This document shows positions 2,232 to 39,239 of a DNA stretch of 64,000 nt, piece after piece (position 1 is the first letter of the stretch; every line of letters starts with the position of its first letter). The notes under the pieces were generated by a model. The model was not told the DNA's origin and made no database searches. It saw only the letters and a list, made by a program, of their open reading frames with translations. Source of the DNA: Escherichia coli (GTDB lineage Bacteria; Pseudomonadota; Gammaproteobacteria; Enterobacterales; Enterobacteriaceae); NCBI RefSeq assembly GCF_024502345.1, contig NZ_JALDNN010000001.1, one strand, 5' to 3'. A program made the position numbers and the translations under genes.

Positions 2232-2585
2232 TACACCATGATTTTGTAATTTTGCTGGGAAAAATTGCGATTAATCTGTATTTGCTATAATTCTGATTAA
2301 GACATTTTAAAATGCATTTCTCGTTATTAAATATGATTATGTTTCACTGATTTAATCTTACCTGGTTGAGGGTGGTTCAGATAACTATCTCATGGTATGA
2401 GAATATCTATATCGCAAATTGTTTTTGAATGACCAGAAGATATCTTGCGAATCTAAGTTATGCATCTTAAATGGTCTTATTTAAGATGTTCAGATCTCTT
2501 TGTGTGTTTAACTAACTGATAATACTAGGATATGATGAGAGAAGTGATAGGGCGGAATAATAACGAATGAACATTATGAAAACTG

Positions 2586-2620
2586 GAATGGTTCAAAATT
2601 GTAGCAATTTTGAACCATTC
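2586..2620 (-). terminator. Probable terminator hairpin downstream of the yqeG remnant
   Basis: Perfect 15-bp inverted repeat GAATGGTTCAAAATT / AATTTTGAACCATTC with 5-nt loop, directly after the yqeG stop, followed on the minus strand by a U-rich tract. Confidence 0.4.
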
Positions 2621-2630
2621 ACAATGGATA

Positions 2631-2865
2631 TCAGCTAAAGAACATTACCGATACGCACAGGATACCCACGATCAGCGTAATCAGATTTCCGATGGAACGC
2701 CAGGGTTTAAGCGCCGGGATCAGATACGTTGACAACGTAGGCATGATGAAAAGTATCATGGCAATGAGCGGGCCGCTGATCGCGTAAATCATCGAAATCG
2801 CGTTCGGGTTAATGCAACAAACAATGAAGGTGATCAGCGATACCAACATAATTGATAGTGCGCGG
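2631..2865 (-). pseudogene. yqeG: yqeG remnant: C-terminal ~77 codons of an HAAAP-family (SdaC/TdcC-like) transporter, truncated by IS903
   Basis: Frame ..GPLIAMILFIMPTLSTYLIPALKPWRSIGNLITLIVGILCVSVMFFS* aligns with the C-terminus of SdaC in this same window (..[51 protein letters not shown]); upstream part of the frame is IS903 sequence. Confidence 0.65.
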
Positions 2866-3922
2866 GGCTTTGTTGAATAAATCGAACTTTTGCTGAGTTG
2901 AAGGATCAGATCACGTATCTTCCCGACAACGCAGACCGTTCCGTGGCAAAGCAAAAGTTCAAAATCACCAACTGGCCCACCTACAATAAAGCCCTCATCA
3001 ACCGTGGCTCCATAACTTTCTGGCTGGATGATGAAGCTATTCAGGCCTGGTATGAGTCAGCAACACCTTCTTCACGAGGCAGACCTCAGCGCTATTCTGA
3101 CCTTGCCATCACGACTGTGCTGGTCATTAAACGCGTATTCAGGCTGACCCTGCGCGCTGCGCAGGGCTTTATTGATTCCATTTTTTCTCTGATGAACGTT
3201 CCGCTACGCTGCCCGGATTACAGCTGTGTCAGCAGGCGGGCAAAGTCGGTTAATGTCAGTTTCAAAACGCCCACCCGGGGTGAAATCGCACACCTGGTAA
3301 TTGATTCCACCGGGCTGAAGGTCTTCGGTGAAGGCGAGTGGAAAGTCAAAAAGCATGGCCAGGAACGCCGCCGTATCTGGCGTAAGCTGCATCTCGCCGT
3401 TGACAGTAAAACACATGAAATCATCTGCGCTGACCTGTCGCTGAACAACGTTACGGACTCAGAGGCCTTCCCCGGGTTAATCCGGCAAACCCACCGGAAA
3501 ATCAGGTCAGCCGCCGCCGATGGCGCTTACGATACCCGGCTATGTCACGATGAACTGCGGCGTAAGAAAATCAGCGCGCTTATCCCTCCCCGAAAAGGTG
3601 CGGGTTACTGGCCCGGTGAATATGCAGACCGTAACCGTGCAGTGGCTAATCAGCGAATGACCGGGAGTAATGCGCGGTGGAAATGGACAACAGATTACAA
3701 CCGTCGCTCGATAGCGGAAACGGCGATGTACCGGGTAAAACAGCTGTTCGGGGGTTCACTGACACTGCGTGACTACGATGGTCAGGTTGCAGAGGCTATG
3801 GCCCTGGTACGAGCGCTGAACAAAATGACGAAAGCAGGTATGCCTGAAAGCGTGCGTATTGCCTGAAAACACAACCCGCTACGGGGGAGACTTACCCGAA
3901 ATCTGATTTATTCAACAAAGCC
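2866..3922 (+). mobile_element. IS903-group (IS5 family) element, complete 1057 bp, no target-site duplication
   Basis: Left end GGCTTTGTTGAATAAATCG at 2866, inverse copy ending at 3922; exactly 1057 bp; flanks agtgcgcgg / cattcttct do not match, whereas IS903 normally makes a 9-bp duplication. Confidence 0.85.
2943..3866 (+). CDS. IS903-type DDE transposase (307 aa from a GTG start)
   Basis: ORF ..GLKVFGEGEWKVKKHGQERRRIWRKLHLAVD..DGAYDTR..SIAETAMYRVK; the track ORF begins at TTG 2898, but GTG 2943 gives 307 aa, which I recall as the IS903 transposase length. Confidence 0.8.
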   Translation: MAKQKFKITNWPTYNKALINRGSITFWLDDEAIQAWYESATPSSRGRPQRYSDLAITTVLVIKRVFRLTLRAAQGFIDSIFSLMNVPLRCPDYSCVSRRAKSVNVSFKTPTRGEIAHLVIDSTGLKVFGEGEWKVKKHGQERRRIWRKLHLAVDSKTHEIICADLSLNNVTDSEAFPGLIRQTHRKIRSAAADGAYDTRLCHDELRRKKISALIPPRKGAGYWPGEYADRNRAVANQRMTGSNARWKWTTDYNRRSIAETAMYRVKQLFGGSLTLRDYDGQVAEAMALVRALNKMTKAGMPESVRIA

Positions 3923-3940
3923 CATTCTTCTTACTTTTAT

Positions 3941-3966
3941 GACCCTGCCGCATGGCAGGGTTTTTT
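3941..3966 (+). terminator. Intrinsic terminator; probably the 3' terminator of the deleted upstream gene (kduD in K-12)
   Basis: GC stem CCCTGCC / GGCAGGG with 4-nt loop followed by TTTTTT, 20 bp after the IS903 end. Confidence 0.45.
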
Positions 3967-4135
3967 ATATCTGTAGATCATCATAATCCATATCATGGTT
4001 ATGAAATAATCCATATCAATTATCAATTAATGAACTTTATGAATTTTATCTGCTGTAAAATTAGGTGATTAATAATAATATCAATAATTCAACTTAATTT
4101 GAAAATTGGAATATCCATCACATAACGACATGTCG

Positions 4136-4170
4136 TAGCAATTTAATCCATATTTATGCTGTTTCCGACC
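4136..4170 (+). promoter_or_regulatory. araE promoter region with AraC half-site pair
   Basis: TAGCAATTTAATCCATA followed by TTTATGCTGTTTCCGAC resembles the AraC TAGCn7TCCATA motif, about 70 bp upstream of the araE start. Confidence 0.45.
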
Positions 4171-4234
4171 TGACACCTGTGTGAGTTGTTCACGTATTTT
4201 TTCACTATGTCTTACTCTCTGCTGGCAGGAAAAA

Positions 4235-5653
4235 ATGGTTACTATCAATACGGAATCTGCTTTAACGCCACGTTCTTTGCGGGATACGCGGCGTATGAAT
4301 ATGTTTGTTTCGGTAGCTGCTGCGGTCGCAGGATTGTTATTTGGTCTTGATATCGGCGTAATCGCCGGAGCGTTGCCGTTCATTACCGATCACTTTGTGC
4401 TGACCAGTCGTTTGCAGGAATGGGTGGTTAGTAGCATGATGCTCGGTGCAGCAATTGGTGCGCTGTTTAATGGTTGGCTGTCGTTCCGCCTGGGGCGTAA
4501 ATACAGCCTGATGGCGGGGGCCATCCTGTTTGTACTCGGTTCTATAGGGTCCGCTTTTGCGACCAGCGTAGAGATGTTAATCGCCGCTCGTGTGGTGCTG
4601 GGCATTGCTGTCGGGATCGCGTCTTACACCGCTCCTCTGTATCTTTCTGAAATGGCAAGTGAAAACGTTCGCGGTAAGATGATCAGTATGTACCAGTTGA
4701 TGGTCACACTCGGCATCGTGCTGGCGTTTTTATCCGATACAGCGTTCAGTTATAGCGGTAACTGGCGCGCAATGTTGGGGGTTCTTGCTTTACCAGCAGT
4801 TCTGCTGATTATTCTGGTGGTCTTCCTGCCAAATAGCCCGCGCTGGCTGGCGGAAAAGGGGCGTCATATTGAGGCGGAAGAAGTATTGCGTATGCTGCGC
4901 GATACGTCGGAAAAAGCGCGAGAAGAACTCAACGAAATTCGTGAAAGCCTGAAGTTAAAACAGGGCGGTTGGGCACTGTTTAAGATCAACCGTAACGTCC
5001 GTCGTGCTGTGTTTCTCGGTATGTTGTTGCAGGCGATGCAGCAGTTTACCGGTATGAACATCATCATGTACTACGCGCCGCGTATCTTCAAAATGGCGGG
5101 CTTTACGACCACAGAACAACAGATGATTGCGACTCTGGTCGTAGGGCTGACCTTTATGTTCGCCACCTTTATTGCGGTGTTTACGGTAGATAAAGCAGGG
5201 CGTAAACCGGCTCTGAAAATTGGTTTCAGCGTGATGGCGTTAGGCACTCTGGTGCTGGGCTATTGCCTGATGCAGTTTGATAACGGTACGGCTTCCAGTG
5301 GCTTGTCCTGGCTCTCTGTTGGCATGACGATGATGTGTATTGCCGGTTATGCGATGAGCGCCGCGCCAGTGGTGTGGATCCTGTGCTCTGAAATTCAGCC
5401 GCTGAAATGCCGCGATTTCGGTATTACCTGTTCGACCACCACGAACTGGGTGTCGAATATGATTATCGGCGCGACCTTCCTGACGCTGCTCGACAGCATT
5501 GGCGCTGCCGGTACGTTCTGGCTCTACACTGCGCTGAACATTGCGTTTGTGGGCATCACTTTCTGGCTCATTCCGGAAACCAAAAATGTCACGCTGGAAC
5601 ATATCGAACGCAAACTGATGGCAGGCGAGAAGTTGAGAAATATCGGCATCTGA
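4235..5653 (+). CDS. araE: Arabinose:H+ symporter (MFS sugar porter)
   Basis: 472 aa from ATG 4235 ([15 protein letters not shown]..); the track ORF starts earlier at GTG 4181. Confidence 0.93.
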
Positions 5654-5659
5654 TTTCAC

Positions 5660-5692
5660 GGGCCGGATGTGCTGTACATCCGGCCCTTTTTT
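5660..5692 (+). terminator. araE rho-independent terminator
   Basis: GGGCCGGATGT / ACATCCGGCCC hairpin followed by TTTTTT. Confidence 0.7.
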
Positions 5693-5781
5693 CGTTAATA
5701 GAGATCGGGCACTTGGCCGTTGAGGCGTTTGTCTCGTTCCTTATTCAGCCTTGTTGCGGTAACACACATCAGGAGAGAGGA

Positions 5782-6474
5782 ATGAAAACAATTGGTTTGC
5801 TGGGAGGAATGAGCTGGGAATCCACCATTCCTTACTATCGTTTGATAAATGAAGGCATTAAACAGCGGCTTGGTGGGCTTCACTCTGCGCAAGTGCTGCT
5901 ACATAGCGTCGATTTTCATGAAATAGAAGAGTGCCAGCGTCGCGGGGAATGGGATAAAACCGGGGACATTCTGGCTGAGGCGGCGCTTGGCTTACAGCGG
6001 GCGGGCGCAGAAGGTATTGTGTTATGTACCAATACGATGCATAAAGTGGCGGATGCCATTGAGTCACGTTGCACTCTGCCTTTCTTACACATTGCGGATG
6101 CCACCGGACGTGCAATTACCGGGGCCGGAATGACTCGTGTGGCGCTGCTGGGTACGCGTTACACCATGGAACAGGATTTTTATCGCGGGCGGCTGACGGA
6201 ACAATTTTCCATCAATTGTCTTATTCCTGAAGCGGATGAACGGGCGAAGATTAATCAGATTATTTTTGAAGAACTGTGTCTGGGGCAATTCACCGAAGCG
6301 TCACGCACTTATTATGCGCAAGTGATTGCTCGCCTGGCAGAACAGGGGGCGCAGGGTGTCATTTTTGGCTGCACAGAGATTGGTTTACTGGTGCCAGAAG
6401 AGCGCAGTGTTCTGCCTGTGTTTGATACTGCGGCGATCCATGCCGAGGATGCTGTCGCTTTTATGCTGTCGTAG
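5782..6474 (+). CDS. ygeA: Amino-acid racemase of the Asp/Glu racemase family
   Basis: 230 aa from ATG 5782 behind a GGAGAGAGG RBS; the track ORF 5407-6474 carries a spurious N-terminal extension overlapping araE. Confidence 0.85.
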
Positions 6475-7396
6475 CTGACGACAGAATAGCGTCAAGAGAA
6501 GTGACCAGTTTCGGTAATCCCGCTTGTAAATGCTCACTAAACGCCTGCACCAGCGCTGATGACGGGCGATGCAGAGGGCGGATCAGGCTGACGGTAAACG
6601 GAACCGCAATACTGAACCGCCGCACCACTAAACCGCTTGCCGCATAATCCAGTGCGGTGAGCGGGTTAACCACCGAAACACCTACCCCCGTCCGTACCAT
6701 TGCGCACACTGACGCGGCGCTGTGGGTTTCTACGATCATGCGTCGTTTAACCTGATGTTCAGTAAATAGCTGATCCAGCAACTGGCGATAGCTGTCAGTA
6801 CGGGAAAGGCTGATGTAGTTCTCACCCTGAAAATCATCCGGCGTTAATACCTTTTTTACCGCCAGCGGATGACCCGGAGGTAACACACACACTTCATCTA
6901 AAGAGAGTAATTCAGTACGTTCTGTTCCCGCAGGCGTATGGAGTGTCTCAGTGAGTCCTAAATCATGACGCTGTGCCGAGAGCCACTCTTCAAGTAGCGG
7001 TGATTCCTGGGGCACAATATTTAAGCTGACATCGGGATAACGTGCCAGAAAGGGTTGCAGGAGCTGCGGTAAAAAAGATTGCGAAAAGACCGGCAGGCAG
7101 GCAATAGACAGTTCTCCCTGGCGAAACTCGCGCAGACTTTCTGCGGCGCTGACAATGCGATCCAGTCCGTACCAGGATCGTTGCACTTCTTCAAACAGAC
7201 GCAGTCCTTGCACGGTAGGATGTAATCGTCCACGTACGCGCTCAAACAATTTCAGCCCGATCACCTTCTCAAAGCGCGCCAGTTCGCGGCTGACGGTTGG
7301 CTGTGAGGTGTGTAGCAGGTGTGCTGCCTCAGTCAGGCTTCCGGCGGTCATTACCGCATGAAAAATTTCAATATGACGTAAGTTAACGGCGGCCAT
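6461..7396 (-). CDS. lysR: LysR transcriptional activator of lysA
   Basis: 311 aa LTTR with N-terminal HTH; divergent from lysA. Confidence 0.93.
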
Positions 7397-7517
7397 TAGC
7401 GCTCTCTCGCAATCCGGTAATCCATATCATTTTTGCATAGACTCGACATAAATCGATATTTTTTATTCTTTTTATGATGTGGCGTAATCATAAAAAAGCA
7501 CTCATCTGGAGTTTGTT

Positions 7518-8780
7518 ATGCCACATTCACTGTTCAGCACCGATACCGATCTCACCGCCGAAAATCTGCTGCGTTTGCCCGCTGAATTTGGCTGCCCGGT
7601 GTGGGTCTACGATGCGCAAATTATTCGTCGGCAGATTGCAGCGCTGAAACAGTTTGATGTGGTGCGCTTTGCACAGAAAGCCTGTTCCAATATTCATATT
7701 TTGCGATTAATGCGTGAGCAGGGCGTGAAAGTGGATTCCGTCTCGTTAGGCGAAATAGAGCGTGCGTTGGCGGCGGGTTACAATCCGCAAACGCACCCCG
7801 ATGATATTGTTTTTACGGCAGATGTTATCGATCAGGCGACGCTTGAACGCGTCAGTGAATTGCAAATTCCGGTGAATGCGGGTTCTGTTGATATGCTCGA
7901 CCAACTGGGCCAGGTTTCGCCAGGGCATCGGGTATGGCTGCGCGTTAACCCGGGGTTTGGTCACGGACATAGCCAAAAAACCAATACCGGTGGCGAAAAC
8001 AGCAAGCACGGTATCTGGTACACCGATCTGCCCGCCGCACTGGACGTGATACAACGTCATCATCTGCAGCTGGTCGGCATTCACATGCACATTGGTTCTG
8101 GCGTTGATTATGCCCATCTGGAACAGGTGTGTGGTGCTATGGTACGTCAGGTCATCGAATTCGGTCAGGATTTACAGGCTATTTCTGCAGGCGGTGGGCT
8201 TTCTATTCCTTATCAACAGGGTGAAGAGGCGGTTGATACCGAGCATTATTATGGTCTGTGGAATGCCGCGCGTCAGCAAATCGCCCGCCATTTGGGCCAC
8301 CCTGTGAAACTGGAAATTGAACCGGGTCGCTTTCTGGTAGCGCAGTCTGGCGTGTTAATTACTCAGGTGCGGAGCGTCAAACAAATGGGTAGCCGCCACT
8401 TTGTGCTGGTTGATGCCGGGTTCAACGATCTGATGCGCCCGGCAATGTACGGTAGTTACCACCATATCAGTGCCCTGGCAGCTGATGGTCGTTCTCTGGA
8501 ACACGCGCCAACGGTGGAAACCGTCGTCGCCGGGCCATTATGTGAATCGGGCGATGTCTTTACCCAGCAGGAAGGGGGAAATGTTGAAACCCGCGCCTTG
8601 CCGGAAGTGAAGGCGGGTGATTATCTGGTACTGCATGATACAGGGGCATATGGCGCATCAATGTCATCCAACTACAACAGCCGTCCGCTGTTACCAGAAG
8701 TTCTGTTTGATAATGGTCAGGCGCGGTTGATTCGCCGTCGCCAGACCATCGAAGAATTACTGGCGCTGGAATTGCTTTAA
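7518..8780 (+). CDS. lysA: Diaminopimelate decarboxylase
   Basis: 420 aa; PLP-dependent fold-III decarboxylase. Confidence 0.95.
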   Translation: MPHSLFSTDTDLTAENLLRLPAEFGCPVWVYDAQIIRRQIAALKQFDVVRFAQKACSNIHILRLMREQGVKVDSVSLGEIERALAAGYNPQTHPDDIVFTADVIDQATLERVSELQIPVNAGSVDMLDQLGQVSPGHRVWLRVNPGFGHGHSQKTNTGGENSKHGIWYTDLPAALDVIQRHHLQLVGIHMHIGSGVDYAHLEQVCGAMVRQVIEFGQDLQAISAGGGLSIPYQQGEEAVDTEHYYGLWNAARQQIARHLGHPVKLEIEPGRFLVAQSGVLITQVRSVKQMGSRHFVLVDAGFNDLMRPAMYGSYHHISALAADGRSLEHAPTVETVVAGPLCESGDVFTQQEGGNVETRALPEVKAGDYLVLHDTGAYGASMSSNYNSRPLLPEVLFDNGQARLIRRRQTIEELLALELL

Positions 8781-8786
8781 CTGCGG

Positions 8787-9818
8787 TTAGTCGCTGGTTG
8801 CATGATGACTGGCCTCCAGCGACGGAGTTGACACTGAATGGCGACGTACCAGCGTCGGACTAAAGACATTAGTGATTTCCGGGAGAGGGCGATTATCCGC
8901 CAGCGCCAAAGCCAGTTCGGCAGCCTGGGTCGCCATCGTCACGATTGGGTAACGCACGGTGGTCAGGCGCGGGCGCACATAGCGTGACACCAGCACATCA
9001 TCAAAGCCAATTAACGAAATTTCGCCCGGTACATCAATACCATTATCATTGAGAACGCCCATCGCACCCGCCGCCATTGAATCGTTATAACAGGCTACCG
9101 CAGTGAAATTTCTTCCTCGTCCCAAAAGCTCGGTCATTGCCTGTTCGCCGCCGCTTTCGTCTGGTTCGCCAAATGTCACCAGCCGATCATTGGCCGGAAT
9201 ACCACTTTCAGCAAGGGCATCGTAATACCCTTGCAGACGATCTTCGGCGTCAGAAATAGAGTGGTTAGAGCACAGATAACCAATGCGGGTATGACCTTGC
9301 TGAATTAAATGACGCGTTGCCAGCCAGGCACCGTAACGATCGTCAAGAGCAATACAACGGTTTTCAAAGCCAGGCAGGATACGGTTGATCAGCACCATAC
9401 CGGGCATTTGTTTCATTAATGAGGCTAAATCGGCATCCGGGATCATTTTGGCATGGACGACCAACGCAGCACAGCGATGGCGGATCAGTTGCTCAATAGC
9501 CTGACGCTCTTTTTGTTCGTTGTGGTAACCGTTGCCAATCAATAAGAAATTACCGGTGTGATAAGCCACCTGTTCGACCGCTTTCACCATTGCACCGAAA
9601 AACGGATCGGAAACATCACCAACGACCAGACCGACCGTTTCAGTGGTCTGCTGCGCCAGCGCACGGGCGTTGGCGTTCGGGTGATAGCTAAGAGACTCCA
9701 TTGCACTATGCACAGCCAGCCGGGACGCTTCGCTGGCTTTGGGTGAATTATTAATGACGCGGGAAACGGTGGCGACTGAAACGCCTGCCAGTCGGGCTAC
9801 ATCCTTTATGGTCGCCAT
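8787..9818 (-). CDS. galR: Galactose repressor (LacI family)
   Basis: 343 aa, MATIKDVARLAGVSVATVSRVIN.. HTH. Confidence 0.95.
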   Translation of the reverse strand: MATIKDVARLAGVSVATVSRVINNSPKASEASRLAVHSAMESLSYHPNANARALAQQTTETVGLVVGDVSDPFFGAMVKAVEQVAYHTGNFLLIGNGYHNEQKERQAIEQLIRHRCAALVVHAKMIPDADLASLMKQMPGMVLINRILPGFENRCIALDDRYGAWLATRHLIQQGHTRIGYLCSNHSISDAEDRLQGYYDALAESGIPANDRLVTFGEPDESGGEQAMTELLGRGRNFTAVACYNDSMAAGAMGVLNDNGIDVPGEISLIGFDDVLVSRYVRPRLTTVRYPIVTMATQAAELALALADNRPLPEITNVFSPTLVRRHSVSTPSLEASHHATSD

Positions 9819-10031
9819 GAAAATACCTTAGTGGGTAAACGCTTACATTCTTTCAGTGTTACGGAAAACGCCCGTTGGTTCAAGGGGCGGCGTGTTTTCA
9901 TCGTGGGAATGTGAGCCAAACGCAAATAAGTAAGACAAAAAAAGAGATTGCAAACCTTTGGTTACACTTTGCGAAACGCTGTTGCGATTGACCGCTGGTG
10001 GCGTTTGGCTTCAGGTTGCTAAAGTGGTGAT

Positions 10032-10114
10032 CCCAGAGGTATTGATAGGTGAAGTCAACTTCGGGTTGAGCACATGAATTACACCAGCCTGCGCAGATGC
10101 GCAGGTTTTTTTTT
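10032..10114 (+). ncRNA. omrB: OmrB small RNA
   Basis: CCCAGAGGTATTGATAGGTGAAGTCAACTTCGGGTTGAGCACATGAATTACACCAGCCTGCGCAGATGCGCAGG followed by a T9 run. Confidence 0.9.
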
Positions 10115-10228
10115 GCCGGTCATCAAACTGTAACAGTAACCGACAATTTACACACCTCGTTGCATTTCCCTTCATTCCTTTGCGTTTTCTCGCTGGCGAA
10201 GAGTCGTCGTGCAGACCACAATCAAGAT

Positions 10229-10316
10229 CCCAGAGGTATTGATTGGTGAGATTATTCGGTACGCTCTTCGTACCCTGTCTCTTGCACCAACCTGCGCGGA
10301 TGCGCAGGTTTTTTTT
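10229..10316 (+). ncRNA. omrA: OmrA small RNA
   Basis: CCCAGAGGTATTGATTGGTGAGATTATTCGGTACGCTCTTCGTACCCTGTCTCTTGCACCAACCTGCGCGGATGCGCAGG followed by a T8 run; shares 5' and 3' ends with OmrB. Confidence 0.9.
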
Positions 10317-10382
10317 CGCACCTAATTTACTGTCGCTCGCGTTCTTTATCTCGTGTAATCTCCCTCCATTCGCTTTTACTGA

Positions 10383-13749
<3,367 letters not shown>

Positions 13750-13752
13750 TAT

Positions 13753-13778
13753 TTAACGCCGGTTTTAACCGGCGTTAA
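13753..13778. terminator. Bidirectional hairpin between convergent lplT and tas
   Basis: AACGCCGG / CCGGCGTT inverted repeat flanked by A/T runs on both sides. Confidence 0.55.
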
Positions 13779-13780
13779 TC

Positions 13781-14821
13781 TTATGGTGCCGGATAAGTAT
13801 AAACCTGATGCACCGCTTCAATTTCAGCTAATACGTCTTCGCTTAACTCCAGATGCAAACTTTCGATGTTAGTTTTCAGCTGATCCATCGTGGTTGCGCC
13901 CAGCAGAGTGCTGGCAACAAACGGTTGACGGCGTACAAACGCGAGCGCCATCTGAGCAGGGTCCAGGCCATGACGTCTGGCGATATCAACATACGCCGCG
14001 ACGGCTTTTTGCGTTTGCTCACCGCTATAGCGGGTGAACCGACTAAAGAGCGTATTACGTGCGCCAGCGGGTTTTGCACCATTGAGATATTTCCCGGTCA
14101 GCGTGCCGAAACCCAGGCACGAATAGGCCAGCAGTTCGACCCCTTCATACTGGCTGACTTCTGCCAGACCTACTTCAAAACTGCGGTTTAACAGACTGTA
14201 AGGGTTCTGAATGGTGACAATACGCGGCAGATCGTGTTTGTCCGCCAGATGCAGGTAGCGCATTACGCCAAATGCAGTTTCGTTCGACACGCCGATATAA
14301 CGAATTTTTCCCGCGCGTTGGTACTCTGCCAGTGCGTCCAGCGTATCCAGCAGCGAAACCGCAGGCGCAGAATCCGTCCAGCTATAACCGAGTTTGCCGA
14401 AGCAGTTGGTCGGGCGCTGCGGCCAGTGCACCTGATAAAGATCGAGGTAATCAGTCTGTAGGCGCTTGAGGCTGTCATGCAGCGCTTCGCGGATATTCTT
14501 CCGATCCAGCGCCTGATCCGGGCGGATGCCCTTGTCATTATTGCGCGACGGTCCGCTCACTTTGGAGGCGATAATTAACTTTTCGCGGCTGCCATGTTTC
14601 GCCAGCCAGTTGCCGACGTAGGTTTCGGTTAACCCTTGCGTTTCGGGGCGCGGAGGTACTGGGTACATTTCGGCAACGTCGATAAGGTTAATGCCCTGAG
14701 CGACGGCATAGTCGAGTTGTGCGTGGGCGTCGGCTTCGCTGTTCTGTTCACCAAACGTCATCGTGCCAAGCCCCAGCGTGCTGACTTCCAGCGAACTGTG
14801 GGGTATACGGTGATATTGCAT
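13781..14821 (-). CDS. tas: NADP(H)-dependent aldo-keto reductase
   Basis: 346 aa AKR family. Confidence 0.9.
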   Translation of the reverse strand: MQYHRIPHSSLEVSTLGLGTMTFGEQNSEADAHAQLDYAVAQGINLIDVAEMYPVPPRPETQGLTETYVGNWLAKHGSREKLIIASKVSGPSRNNDKGIRPDQALDRKNIREALHDSLKRLQTDYLDLYQVHWPQRPTNCFGKLGYSWTDSAPAVSLLDTLDALAEYQRAGKIRYIGVSNETAFGVMRYLHLADKHDLPRIVTIQNPYSLLNRSFEVGLAEVSQYEGVELLAYSCLGFGTLTGKYLNGAKPAGARNTLFSRFTRYSGEQTQKAVAAYVDIARRHGLDPAQMALAFVRRQPFVASTLLGATTMDQLKTNIESLHLELSEDVLAEIEAVHQVYTYPAP

Positions 14822-14928
14822 AGCCGTTTCCTTTTTATAATCACGACATAAGGAATATAAAAATGGCAGAGGGAAGGGAAAAGGGAAAGAGAAAAATCTT
14901 AAGGCCAGCCGGATGCTGACCTTATTTG

Positions 14929-15147
14929 TTAACGTTCAATAATTTGCGAAACATCATCACGGTTAATTTGCATCGCGTTACCTTGCTGATCGTGATAACT
15001 CACCAGCCCGGTATCATCATCAATTTCAGGTTTTCCATCGGTCAAAATCATACGGCCATCTTTGGTCGCCATGACGTAATCACTGGAACACCCGGAAACA
15101 GCAAACGCCAGTCCGACTGCAGAAATTATTACTGCCCATTTTTTCAT
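14929..15147 (-). CDS. ygdR: Small lipoprotein
   Basis: 72 aa; lipobox ..AVSGC; paralogous to ygdI in this window. Confidence 0.85.
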
Positions 15148-15284
15148 CCGGTTATCCTCATTTGGCCTACCTATGATAATAGTCTGTTTATAAACCGACG
15201 TTATATATCTTGAAAGCAGGAAAATCTTAAACTGTGAGGGTAAAAGGAGTGAGTACGCCCTCCCGCAGGAGAGCGTACGGAGTA

Positions 15285-15998
15285 TCAGAGCGGATTCTTT
15301 TTGTTGCGAATCAAGTTGAGGCTTTCAACCGCAATAGAGAAGAACATCGCGAAGTAGATGTAACCTTTCGGTACGTGGATGTCGAAACTTTCCAGAATCA
15401 GGGTAAAGCCCACCAGAATCAGGAAAGAGAGCGCCAGCATTTTTACCGAAGGATGGCGTTCGACAAAATCACCAATCGAGCGCGCGGCGAACATCATCAC
15501 GCCTACGGCAATCACCACGGCTGCCATCATAATAAACAGGTGATCTGACAGACCCACAGCCGTAATCACCGAGTCGAGGCTAAAGATAATATCCAGCAGC
15601 ATAATCTGCACGATAGCGCCGAGGAATGATGAAACGCGTGTTTTCAGCCCTTCTTCTTCACCTTCAATGGATTCGTGGATTTCCTTGCTGGCTTTCCAGA
15701 TAAGGAACAAGCCACCCAGAAGCAGAATCAAATCACGGGCAGAAATTTCCTGACTGAATATTGTAAAAAGCGGATTTGTCAGGCGCGTAACCCAGGCGAT
15801 TGATGCCAGCAGCGCCAGACGCATAACCATGGCTCCCGCCAACCCCAGACGGCGCGCATGAGCACGTTGTGCTGTGGGAAGCTTTGCCACCACCAGAGAA
15901 AGGAAAATAATATTGTCGATCCCAAGAACGATCTCCAGCAGCGTCAGCGTACCGAGCGCAAGCCAGGCGTTAGGATCGGTTATCCATGCAAATAACAT
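15285..15998 (-). CDS. ygdQ: TerC-family inner-membrane protein
   Basis: 237 aa multi-pass membrane protein. Confidence 0.85.
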
Positions 15999-16066
15999 CT
16001 AAAAAGCCCTGCCAAAAAAATGAAGCGGTAATTATATGCCCGGAAAGCGGCAGGTCAAAGCGATGG

Positions 16067-16756
16067 CTACTGGATCAGAAAATGACGGGCCAGTAGTGCA
16101 CTGGTGAAATTCTTCTTCAAATAAAAGCCGCGTGGCAGCGTCAGAATCCGTTCGCCCCGGGCACCAATGGCTTCGGTAAGCGCTTTCGCATTCGCTGCTT
16201 TCGGTCTTATCTGTAAATATTCCCCGTGACGAGCGGTGATCCGCTCAACCTGACCGAGAACAATCATATCCATTAATTCTTCCCAGTCTTCGCGTAGCTG
16301 TCGGTCTTCCTCTTCATTCGGGCTCCACAGCAACGGGGATCCTACGCGACGCTGCGCCAGCGGGATGCTGCGCTCGCCTTCAACCGGTATCCACAGTACG
16401 CGTTTGAGCTTGTGGCGCACGTGGCTGGTTTCCCAGGTCACCCCGCTATTACCCGTTAACGGGGCAACACAAACGAATGTTGTTTCCAGCGGACGACCAA
16501 GACTATCCACAGGGATAGTTTTAAGTTCCACGCCCAGAGCGGCAAAATCTTGCTCAGGTTTACTCCCTGCGCTGGCACCTAGCCAGATCTCCAGTAACAC
16601 GCCAATCCAGCCCTTATCGCGTTTTAAATTCTCTGGCGTAACCAGCCCGGCAAGTGCCGCCAGTTCTCCCAATGTATAACCAGAAAGTTGCTGTGCTTGC
16701 GCTAACAACTGTTCTTCAGTTTCGGGAGGAGAGAGCAGTGGGCGAGGTTGGGACAT
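16067..16756 (-). CDS. mutH: Methyl-directed mismatch-repair endonuclease
   Basis: 229 aa. Confidence 0.93.
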
Positions 16757-16899
16757 GTCATGATACCTTGATTAAAAAACAAACAGCAATTATGTGCCGA
16801 ATATTCGCAGTGTAACTTTTTCCACATGTGTTGTTCAATTCTCTGATTTATATTGCTTTTTAGGCTGCCGGTAATCGAGTTGCGCAACACTGCAATAGG

Positions 16900-17300
16900 T
16901 TTTCCAAATCTGGTCACTGAAAATAAACAGGATCTTACACCATGTTATCCACAGAAAGCTGGGATAACTGTGAAAAACCTCCACTACTGTTTCCATTTAC
17001 AGCCTTGACGTGCGATGAAACTCCAGTTTTTAGTGGTTCAGTGCTTAACTTAGTGGCACATTCTGTGGATAAATACGGCATTGGTTGATCTTTCGCCAAC
17101 CCGTAAATGAGAGGTGTGACCTGGGTCACGAATTACTCTTTTTCATTACTCAAATTACATGTAATGCATTGACTAATAATGAATATTTTAAAATGTCTAT
17201 ATCGGGTTTATTCAGAATGCTCCGGGTTTTCCCGTAGTAATTCCGTAGTTCTTCACAACTCTATCCACAGAAAAGGTGAATAAAAACGGCTATTCACCCC
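16900..17300. promoter_or_regulatory. Probable DARS2 (DnaA-reactivating sequence 2) DnaA-box cluster
   Basis: TTATCCACA at 16945-16953 (+) and inverted copy at 17064-17072, a further CTATCCACA near 17261; I recall DARS2 as lying in the mutH-rppH(ygdP) intergenic region; boundaries approximate. Confidence 0.5.
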
Positions 17301-17440
17301 TTCCTCTGTTTATAACTCTGCACATAACTGTGAGTTATTCAATTGTTATTAGTGTGTAATGCCCTGCAGAGAGTGGTTTACCGTCTTCCTGGAGTATGAA
17401 ACAATCATTCGTATATAAAGCTTTATTTTGAGGTAGTCCG

Positions 17441-17971
17441 GTGATTGATGACGATGGCTACCGCCCAAACGTAGGTATCGTGATTTGTAATCGCCAGGGG
17501 CAGGTAATGTGGGCCCGGCGATTTGGTCAGCACTCCTGGCAATTTCCGCAAGGCGGAATCAACCCCGGAGAATCCGCAGAGCAGGCGATGTACCGTGAAT
17601 TGTTTGAAGAAGTAGGATTAAGCCGCAAAGACGTTCGAATCCTTGCTTCAACGCGTAACTGGTTGCGCTACAAATTACCGAAACGTTTGGTGCGTTGGGA
17701 CACGAAGCCGGTTTGTATCGGCCAAAAACAAAAATGGTTTCTCTTGCAGCTGGTAAGCGGCGATGCAGAAATCAATATGCAAACCAGCAGTACACCAGAG
17801 TTTGACGGCTGGCGATGGGTAAGTTACTGGTATCCGGTCAGACAGGTGGTGTCATTTAAACGTGATGTCTACCGTAGGGTAATGAAAGAGTTCGCGAGTG
17901 TGGTGATGTCACTGCAGGAAAATACGCCAAAACCACAAAACGCATCTGCTTATCGACGTAAAAGAGGTTAA
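17441..17971 (+). CDS. rppH: RNA pyrophosphohydrolase (Nudix)
   Basis: 176 aa with Nudix box. Confidence 0.93.
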
Positions 17972-17983
17972 GTCACGCCAATT

Positions 17984-20230
17984 ATGCTCACTCGCCTGCG
18001 CGAAATAGTCGAAAAGGTAGCCAGCGCACCACGCCTGAATGAGGCGTTAAATATTCTGGTTACCGACATCTGTCTTGCGATGGATACCGAGGTCTGTTCG
18101 GTCTACCTGGCCGATCATGATCGACGTTGTTACTACCTGATGGCGACCCGGGGGCTGAAAAAACCACGCGGTCGCACTGTAACGCTCGCGTTTGATGAAG
18201 GGATCGTCGGCCTGGTTGGCAGGCTGGCGGAACCGATAAACCTTGCAGATGCGCAAAAGCACCCCAGCTTCAAATACATCCCCTCCGTAAAAGAAGAACG
18301 TTTCCGCGCGTTTTTAGGCGTACCAATTATTCAACGTCGCCAGTTGCTTGGTGTACTGGTGGTACAGCAACGAGAGTTGCGCCAGTATGACGAAAGTGAA
18401 GAATCCTTCCTGGTGACGCTTGCCACCCAGATGGCAGCTATTCTTTCTCAGTCGCAGTTGACTGCCTTGTTTGGGCAATATCGCCAGACGCGAATCCGCG
18501 CATTACCGGCAGCACCTGGTGTGGCGATTGCCGAAGGCTGGCAGGATGCCACGTTACCTTTAATGGAACAGGTGTATCAGGCATCAACGCTGGATCCGGC
18601 TCTGGAACGCGAACGACTGACCGGGGCGCTGGAAGAAGCGGCAAACGAGTTTCGCCGCTACAGCAAACGCTTTGCCGCCGGAGCACAAAAAGAAACGGCG
18701 GCTATTTTCGATCTTTACTCGCACCTACTTTCGGACACCCGGCTGCGTCGCGAATTGTTTGCCGAGGTTGATAAAGGCTCGGTGGCAGAGTGGGCGGTAA
18801 AAACGGTCATTGAAAAATTTGCCGAACAGTTTGCCGCGCTAAGCGATAACTATCTCAAAGAGCGGGCTGGCGATTTACGTGCGCTGGGTCAGCGATTGCT
18901 GTTTCATCTTGATGACGCTAATCAAGGGCCGAACGCCTGGCCGGAACGTTTCATTCTGGTGGCAGATGAACTGTCAGCGACAACTCTTGCTGAGCTGCCC
19001 CAGGATCGCTTAGTCGGTGTTGTCGTGCGAGATGGCGCAGCCAACTCCCATGCTGCGATCATGGTACGTGCGCTGGGGATCCCTACCGTGATGGGCGCGG
19101 ATATTCAGCCTTCGGTGCTGCATCGTAGGACGCTGATCGTTGATGGCTATCGCGGTGAATTGCTGGTCGATCCGGAGCCGGTACTGCTGCAAGAATATCA
19201 GCGGCTAATTAGTGAAGAGATTGAGCTTAGCCGTCTGGCGGAAGATGACGTCAATTTACCCGCGCAGTTAAAAAGCGGTGAGCGTATAAAAGTCATGCTC
19301 AATGCTGGTTTAAGCCCGGAACATGAAGAAAAACTGGGCAGCCGTATTGATGGCATCGGTCTTTATCGCACTGAAATCCCATTCATGCTGCAAAGTGGTT
19401 TCCCGTCGGAAGAAGAACAGGTGGCGCAGTATCAGGGGATGCTGCAAATGTTCAATGATAAACCCGTCACCTTGCGTACGCTGGATGTCGGAGCAGATAA
19501 GCAGCTGCCTTACATGCCGATCAGCGAAGAGAATCCATGCCTGGGTTGGCGTGGGATTCGCATTACGCTCGATCAGCCGGAGATCTTCTTGATCCAGGTG
19601 CGGGCGATGCTGCGTGCTAATGCCGCTACGGGCAACCTGAATATTCTGTTGCCGATGGTCACAAGCCTCGATGAAGTTGATGAAGCACGCCGCCTGATTG
19701 AACGTGCCGGACGTGAAGTCGAGGAGATGATCGGTTACGAAATTCCCAAACCACGTATCGGCATCATGCTGGAAGTGCCGTCAATGGTATTTATGCTGCC
19801 GCATCTGGCAAAGCGGGTCGATTTCATCTCTGTTGGCACCAACGATCTGACTCAATACATTCTGGCCGTTGATCGCAACAATACCCGGGTGGCGAACATT
19901 TATGACAGTCTTCATCCTGCAATGTTACGAGCTCTGGCGATGATCGCCCGGGAAGCGGAAATACATGGTATCGATCTCCGTTTGTGCGGTGAAATGGCGG
20001 GCGATCCCATGTGCGTGGCAATCCTCATTGGGCTTGGGTATCGCCATCTGTCTATGAACGGACGTTCTGTAGCGCGGGTAAAATACCTGCTGCGGCGCAT
20101 TGATTTTGCCGAAGCAGAAAATCTTGCGCAGCGTAGTCTGGAAGCGCAACTGGCGACCGAAGTTCGCCATCAGGTTGCAGCCTTTATGGAGCGTCGCGGC
20201 ATGGGCGGGCTGATTCGCGGAGGGTTATAG
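17984..20230 (+). CDS. ptsP: Nitrogen-PTS enzyme I (EI-Ntr) with GAF domain
   Basis: 748 aa. Confidence 0.93.
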   Translation: MLTRLREIVEKVASAPRLNEALNILVTDICLAMDTEVCSVYLADHDRRCYYLMATRGLKKPRGRTVTLAFDEGIVGLVGRLAEPINLADAQKHPSFKYIPSVKEERFRAFLGVPIIQRRQLLGVLVVQQRELRQYDESEESFLVTLATQMAAILSQSQLTALFGQYRQTRIRALPAAPGVAIAEGWQDATLPLMEQVYQASTLDPALERERLTGALEEAANEFRRYSKRFAAGAQKETAAIFDLYSHLLSDTRLRRELFAEVDKGSVAEWAVKTVIEKFAEQFAALSDNYLKERAGDLRALGQRLLFHLDDANQGPNAWPERFILVADELSATTLAELPQDRLVGVVVRDGAANSHAAIMVRALGIPTVMGADIQPSVLHRRTLIVDGYRGELLVDPEPVLLQEYQRLISEEIELSRLAEDDVNLPAQLKSGERIKVMLNAGLSPEHEEKLGSRIDGIGLYRTEIPFMLQSGFPSEEEQVAQYQGMLQMFNDKPVTLRTLDVGADKQLPYMPISEENPCLGWRGIRITLDQPEIFLIQVRAMLRANAATGNLNILLPMVTSLDEVDEARRLIERAGREVEEMIGYEIPKPRIGIMLEVPSMVFMLPHLAKRVDFISVGTNDLTQYILAVDRNNTRVANIYDSLHPAMLRALAMIAREAEIHGIDLRLCGEMAGDPMCVAILIGLGYRHLSMNGRSVARVKYLLRRIDFAEAENLAQRSLEAQLATEVRHQVAAFMERRGMGGLIRGGL

Positions 20231-38689: not shown

Positions 38690-38735
38690 ATAGGAGACCA
38701 GAAACAAAAAAACACCCGTTAGGGTGTTCAATAAT

Positions 38736-38812
<77 letters not shown>

Positions 38813-38844
38813 TCACCGTACTGCTTTATTTCATTAAATTTGAT

Positions 38845-38921
<77 letters not shown>

Positions 38922-38954
38922 TCACCGTACTGCTTTACTTCATCAAATTTTAAT

Positions 38955-39031
<77 letters not shown>

Positions 39032-39239
39032 TCCGTGGATGCGCACTATACTCCGCTCGCGTTTTCATGCAACCTTTTTTTTACCCCGATCACGGATTTA
39101 GCATGATTTTGAACAAAAACAAACCACTAAAGCCTATTTTTTGTGCAAAATTTGCGTCAGGGAGAGGCTGCTCATTTCATTAAACGCGGCGGTTTGTTAT
39201 CTTCGTTGCGCCTTATTTTTTAACCTGAAGAAGAGAACA

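Follow-up and report, generated by a model that had tools for sequence, protein, structure and literature searches.

The IS903B element upstream of araE very probably marks a strain-specific, IS-bounded deletion of 4.3 kb without a target-site duplication, rather than a simple insertion. Comparing the window, that is, the whole 64-kb stretch of DNA analysed here, with K-12 by BLAST, we found that 4,347 bp of core chromosome are absent, corresponding to K-12 2982495-2986841. The left IS end meets K-12 2986842, the right end meets K-12 2982494, and the endpoints are identical when USMARC-49610 is taken as the reference. Lost with it are 2 nt of spacer, the whole of kduD, kduI and yqeF, and 995 nt (81%) from the 5' end of the 1,230-nt yqeG; no copy of the segment lies elsewhere in the 64-kb window. 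An earlier note on this DNA had described the upstream neighbourhood of araE as replaced by the right end of an IS903; this is correct, but the change amounts to more than an insertion, as 4,347 bp with kduD, kduI, yqeF and most of yqeG were deleted. What the DNA shows directly is the structure of the locus with its endpoints, the lack of a duplication and the preservation of the araE cis elements; the features are collected in Table 1.

Table 1. Features of the IS903B-araE locus, in window coordinates.
Feature	Position	Strand	Description
yqeG 3' remnant	2631-2865	-	Last 235 of 1,230 nt including the stop codon; truncated by the left IS end; collinear with K-12
Complete IS903B (IS5 family, IS903 group)	2866-3922	+	1,057 bp; transposase reads the same way as araE
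IS903B transposase ORF	2898-3866	+	322 aa, uninterrupted; sole ORF of the element
Native kduD-araE intergenic region without the first 2 nt	3923-4234	+	312 of 314 nt; from alignment with K-12
Intrinsic terminator (native kduD), predicted	3941-3968	+	Stem 3941-3962: 9-bp, G+C-rich, with a 4-nt loop; then T6
Two perfect 13-nt direct repeats ATAATCCATATCA	3983-3995, 4006-4018	+	23 nt spacing; each contains TCCATA (AraC half-site core)
CRP-like site TGGAATATCCATCACA	4107-4122	+	Read from the sequence; consensus TGTGA-N6-TCACA; sequence match only
AraC I1-like and I2-like half-sites	4136-4152, 4157-4173	+	Direct repeats abutting the -35 region
araE, arabinose:H+ symporter	4235-5653	+	Intact, 472 aa; ATG at 4235-4237

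Identity of the element

The 18-bp terminal inverted repeat GGCTTTGTTGAATAAATC is perfect and stands at 2866-2883 (+) and 3905-3922 (-). A mismatch-tolerant scan of the 64-kb window found just these two sites, against a chance expectation of 0.04, and a repeat finder paired the same two arms. Since both ends are mapped exactly, the element extends from 2866 to 3922, and its 1,057 bp equal the length of four reference copies of IS903B. The transposase matched the Pfam families DDE_Tnp_1_5 (3.4e-40) and DDE_Tnp_1 (6.6e-33) and the NCBIfam equivalog NF033579 (IS5 family transposase) with 357 bits at a cut-off of 140, and it differs from WP_000654804.1 by one amino acid. At the DNA level, the element is 98.7-99.7% identical in nucleotides, over its full length, to RefSeq copies annotated as 'IS5-like element IS903B', and it shows 14 mismatches in 1,057 nt to the IS903B copy of AHM9C68I. 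Judged on its length, inverted repeats, DDE transposase ORF and nucleotide identity, the element is assigned to the isoform IS903B, and it is the only IS903B copy in the 64-kb window. A mechanically called ORF of 107 aa (2631-2954, -) has a TTG start within the left IS end and runs out into the yqeG remnant; no sign of its expression was found.

Flanks and endpoints of the deletion

IS903 insertion generates 9-bp target-site duplications. No such duplication flanks the element at 2866-3922, where the left flank reads AGTGCGCGG and the right flank CATTCTTCT; of four other 1,057-bp IS903B copies used as a control (L002, L003, L008 and L009), all four carry perfect 9-bp duplications. The missing duplication indicates that the present context did not arise by a simple insertion, and it leaves the identity of the element as IS903B unaffected. 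The right flank CATTCTTCTTACTTTTATG (3923-3941) resembles those of two duplication-bearing IS903B insertions, GATTCTTTTTTATTTCATG and CATAGTTATTAATTTTATT (positions 1600-1618 in both L008 and L009), a likeness that was picked among more than 10,000 IS places and is thus likely to carry a selection bias. The shared character of these three independent IS903B flanks probably reflects a target preference of IS903B for T-rich DNA, and the likeness to simple insertions fits a target chosen by the transposase.

DNA that is contiguous in K-12, USMARC-49610, YJ6 and ETEC6 is missing from the exact end of an intact IS, with no duplication, which is the structure expected of an adjacent deletion. Between the two endpoints there is no significant microhomology; the candidate likeness GCGCG(G)TTAA was dropped, as 1,402 of 2,000 shuffles scored as well.

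On either side of the element the chromosome follows K-12. BLAST delineated collinear blocks at 1621-2865 (yqeH and the 3' end of yqeG), 3923-12418 (araE onward) and 19418-64000, K-12 2967000-2974000, opposite window positions 12418-19418, lying outside the K-12 comparison. Downstream of the element, araE-ygeA-lysR-lysA-galR are collinear with K-12, and upstream of it the yqeG remnant is 100% identical to USMARC-49610 and 99.9% identical to YJ6. Just past the stop codon of yqeG, at 2586-2620, perfect 16-bp inverted arms enclose a 3-nt loop; this structure, which received a terminator-like score on the - strand, probably represents the terminator of yqeG. Farther along the window, BLAST picked up self-similar pieces at 38732-39033, where three tandem initiator tRNA-Met genes (metZ, metW and metV) lie in an ordinary arrangement collinear with K-12.

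The left end of the window holds three different ISs within 4 kb. Among them is a complete IS30 of 1,221 bp (63-1283) with a 2-bp target duplication, whose 383-aa transposase (125-1276) matched NF033563 with 276 bits. This IS30 is nested in an IS3 copy, and in USMARC-49610 that IS3 sits between truncated ygeQ and truncated yqeH, which is an ETT2 deletion junction.

Ancestral state and occurrence of the junctions

The lost segment is present, at a level of at least 80%, in 5,412 of 5,426 complete E. coli genomes (99.7%). In YJ6 and ETEC6, the closest relatives, both flanks agree with the window at 99.9% identity and yqeG-yqeF-kduI-kduD-araE is intact, which makes the ancestral state clear. The same two genomes rule out that the IS marks the boundary of a recombination mosaic, a notion raised by the unequal match to USMARC-49610 (100% on the left flank, 98.7% on the right), because both sides agree with YJ6 and ETEC6 at 99.9%.

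Queries spanning the junctions found neither IS junction among the 5,426 complete E. coli genomes, and the exact junction strings of this strain, TTGATAGTGCGCGGGGCTTTGTTGAATAAA and TTATTCAACAAAGCCCATTCTTCTTACTTT, had 0 matches in genome and metagenome contig collections. Several matches were rejected on inspection. The top matches seemingly placed IS903B beside yqeG, and really were insertions in yqeH and in the yqeI-yqeH spacer, with two pieces joined by BLAST; the lone match to the left junction at '100% coverage' (H66) spanned 558 bp for a 200-bp query and hence represents a different site. Nor did these searches of the 5,426 genomes and the contig collections reveal a precursor with the IS at one junction, which may reflect sampling. 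Both junctions are unique strings and possible lineage markers. What is new here is only the instance, namely the two junctions and the loss of four near-universal genes, while IS903B, the kduD terminator and the AraC/CRP-dependent araE promoter are known already and the type of event is textbook.

The araE control region

In K-12, kduD (2982497-2983258) and araE (2980764-2982182) are read in the same direction and lie 314 nt apart. In the window, the native sequence resumes at the third nucleotide past the kduD TAA, K-12 reading ...CGT TAA TT up to the break and CATTCTTC... beyond it. The distance of 313 bp between the IS903 end and araE given by the earlier note agrees with our coordinates as a positional offset, counted from the last IS base at 3922 to the ATG at 4235, with a spacer of 312 nt. 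Its view that the native control region appears intact was also borne out: 3923-4234 aligned without indels to six E. coli genomes, with six SNPs relative to K-12 and one relative to YJ6 and ETEC6, and the region occurs at a query coverage of at least 80% in 5,403 of the 5,426 complete E. coli genomes. The one private SNP, at 4068, belongs to the AT-rich tract and precedes the CRP-like site; this strain has A there, and K-12, USMARC-49610, YJ6, ETEC6, AHM9C68I and NH-21 have G. None of the CRP, AraC or promoter elements that we recognise includes this position. At 100% identity, 3923-4300 had no match among the complete genomes.

The first native element past the IS is a hairpin at 3941-3962, which by its position is the kduD terminator and is predicted to terminate transcription. 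A terminator scan found it, its sequence is identical in K-12, and its RNA is predicted to fold at -16.9 kcal/mol (z = -4.63), a stability reached by 0 of 200 shuffles. The retained terminator that had been placed at 3941-3966 is thus this stem with its T6, situated 19 nt past the IS end and between the co-directional transposase gene and araE. The AT-rich tract noted upstream of the promoter is equally real, with 75.7% A+T at 3967-4135 compared with 48.9% for the whole window. The two ATAATCCATATCA repeats are native to this tract and present in K-12, where one SNP in the second copy leaves TCCATA intact. Counting I1, TCCATA occurs three times on one strand of the 312 nt, against about 0.15 expected, and the repeats might be extra AraC half-sites 120-150 bp upstream of I1.

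We presume the positions of the araE start and of the CRP and AraC sites from consensus matching and background knowledge; likewise, we take 4107-4122 to be the CRP site from the known consensus and the known CRP dependence of araE. AraC-like half-sites had been suspected near 4136-4170, and we located them at 4136-4152 and 4157-4173: over 4136-4173, 26 of 38 positions agree with araBAD I1-I2, and both cores, TAGC and TCCATA, are preserved. The araBAD sequence used for this comparison is background knowledge, and the synthetic version listed in PMC2893085 is one base shorter. Position 4136 is polymorphic, with T here and in YJ6 and ETEC6 and C in K-12. In the araBAD geometry, I2 overlaps the -35 region, and because of this geometry we place a putative araE -10 element near 4194-4199 and the transcription start near 4206-4208.

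A published araE promoter reporter was built with primers in the 3' end of kduD and in araE codons ~5-12 (PMC2893085). The site of its 5' primer, in kduD, is missing from the window, that of its 3' primer lies at 4248, and by our own reading of the positions ~30 nt at the 5' end of the reporter fragment are lost here. A full-text literature search on the architecture of the araE promoter returned nothing directly usable, and no Rfam family reached threshold within 2400-4600, where one sub-threshold chance match fell inside the IS.

Expected expression of araE

AraE itself is identical to the YJ6 protein, differs from that of K-12 by a single substitution (V472I) and matched TIGR00879 (sugar porter) with 497 bits. 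Every control element that we recognise upstream of araE is kept, from the kduD terminator through the AT-rich tract, CRP-like site and AraC I1/I2 half-sites to the -10 region and leader. As one co-directional upstream gene has been exchanged for another in front of the same terminator, AraC/CRP-controlled expression of araE is predicted to be unchanged. The IS903 transposase gene is described in published work as weakly expressed, and read-through from it would hit the terminator 19 nt outside IS903B. A promoter scan across the right IS end (3850-4000) found no promoter-like site on the + strand, and in the literature we found no outward promoter described for enterobacterial IS903 or IS903B. 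At the left IS end there is no co-directional gene, because the yqeG and yqeH remnants lie on the opposite strand. Slight effects on araE might come from the SNP at 4068 or from the end of read-through out of kduD, and a meaningful change in its expression appears very improbable. The earlier note was right to caution that araE expression cannot be judged from sequence.

The loss of genes is the practical content of the event, with little consequence for araE: the strain has lost kduD, kduI, yqeF and yqeG, which predicts the absence of KduI/KduD activity.

Proposed history and alternative explanations

The locus most likely arose by a two-step adjacent deletion, in which the order of events and the transposition mechanism are inferred. 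IS903B would first have entered the locus at what is now the left or the right junction, and intramolecular, cointegrate-type transposition into a nearby chromosomal site (an 'adjacent deletion') would then have removed the DNA between, an outcome in which the IS would lie between unrelated sequences without a 9-bp duplication. Adjacent deletions by IS903 are common and depend on both IS ends; the route proposed for them is cointegrate-type, replicative intramolecular transposition, and IS-associated deletions characteristically lack target-site duplications (PMC11708052). The two-step history is undocumented, as the searches above yielded no precursor with a simple insertion at the left or the right junction. 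By sequence alone, adjacent deletion, recombination between two copies and a one-step event are indistinguishable.

RecA-dependent recombination between two direct IS903B copies, one in yqeG and one just past the kduD stop, is a possible though doubtful source of the same structure; it would leave one hybrid copy and remove 4.3 kb. The product expected is the one observed (one intact IS, exact IS ends and no shared 9-bp duplication), IS903B inserts repeatedly nearby in other strains (in yqeH and the yqeI-yqeH spacer), and recombination between ISs is a frequent cause of missing duplications (PMC11708052). Such a course needs two independent insertions of the same orientation within 4.3 kb, however, and neither single insertion was found in the 5,426 complete genomes or the other collections searched, while the 64-kb window holds only one IS903B. 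An origin in one step, with IS903B captured into a double-strand break or transposed along with the deletion and no earlier insertion, strikes us as improbable. It would agree with the finding of a precursor junction nowhere in the collections searched, and it has a parallel in E. coli C, where an element of the IS5 family (IS903 sub-group) marked the middle of a duplication-free 62-kb deletion that arose in one overnight culture and for which the authors propose insertion into strand breaks (PMC11708052). The same authors concede that insertion followed by rapid adjacent deletion explains their case; the failed precursor search is weak evidence because few close relatives of the strain are in the collection; and the resemblance of the right flank CATTCTTCTTACTTTTATG to those of two duplication-bearing insertions fits a transposase-chosen target. 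The slightest chance attaches to an assembly artefact, in which two IS903B copies flanking kduD-yqeG were collapsed or contigs were mis-scaffolded over the repeat. A repeat collapse would give the same structure, neither junction is supported by other sequences searched and almost every E. coli has the missing segment, but a collapse still needs two otherwise unseen IS903B insertions, assemblers usually break at 1-kb repeats instead of dropping 4.3 kb of unique DNA, and the remaining window is cleanly collinear with K-12.

A different question is whether the IS alters araE expression through an outward or hybrid promoter, transposase read-through, or local DNA structure or silencing, which we regard as highly unlikely. 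IS5 changes expression at bgl, fucAO and flhDC, and the IS end in our strain is ~285 bp upstream of the inferred araE start, which falls in the distance range reported for IS5 activation. Moreover, the transposase gene is co-directional with araE, and ISs are able to activate neighbouring genes (PMC9208149). Against such an effect stand the lack of a + strand promoter-like site at 3850-4000, the strong terminator just past the IS end, the presence of all native cis elements, the lack of an outward IS903 or IS903B promoter in the literature found, and an ancestral state in which a co-directional gene already preceded the same terminator. We also give a low probability to the proposition that a natural isolate here displays one-step IS903B 'insertion with deletion' by break capture, or that the IS together with the SNP at 4068 measurably changes basal or induced araE expression.

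Comparison with known systems

Relative to kduD-araE of K-12 (b2842-b2841), the locus keeps 312 of 314 intergenic nucleotides with the same terminator, CRP-like site, AraC I1/I2-like sites and leader, but it has lost kduD, kduI and yqeF together with most of yqeG, and a transposase gene has become the co-directional neighbour upstream of araE. An IS5-family element that precedes a catabolite-controlled promoter by a few hundred bp recalls the activation by IS5 of bglGFB, fucAO, flhDC and glpFK. That activation depends on IS5-specific internal sequences and the de-silencing of cryptic or H-NS-repressed promoters, whereas araE is not cryptic. IS903B is not known to activate genes in this way, and the analysis turned up no evidence in favour of such an effect here.

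As regards the deletion, the case is similar to the IS-Del mutations of the Lenski long-term experiment (IS150) and to the E. coli C deletion in that an IS is central to a duplication-free deletion for which the same candidate mechanisms come into consideration (PMC11708052). Those deletions were seen arising in real time and reach up to 62 kb, whereas the present one measures 4.3 kb and is known from sequence. A close correspondence is with the adjacent deletions of IS903, with which it shares two intact IS ends, a deletion starting from the exact IS end, the lack of a 9-bp duplication and lost DNA contiguous with the element (PMC11708052). Unlike the classical examples, which were selected in the laboratory on plasmids, this deletion lies on the chromosome of a natural E. 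coli lineage and its precursor insertion was not found; it adds one more natural case in which a deletion bordered by an IS903-type element shows no target-site duplication.
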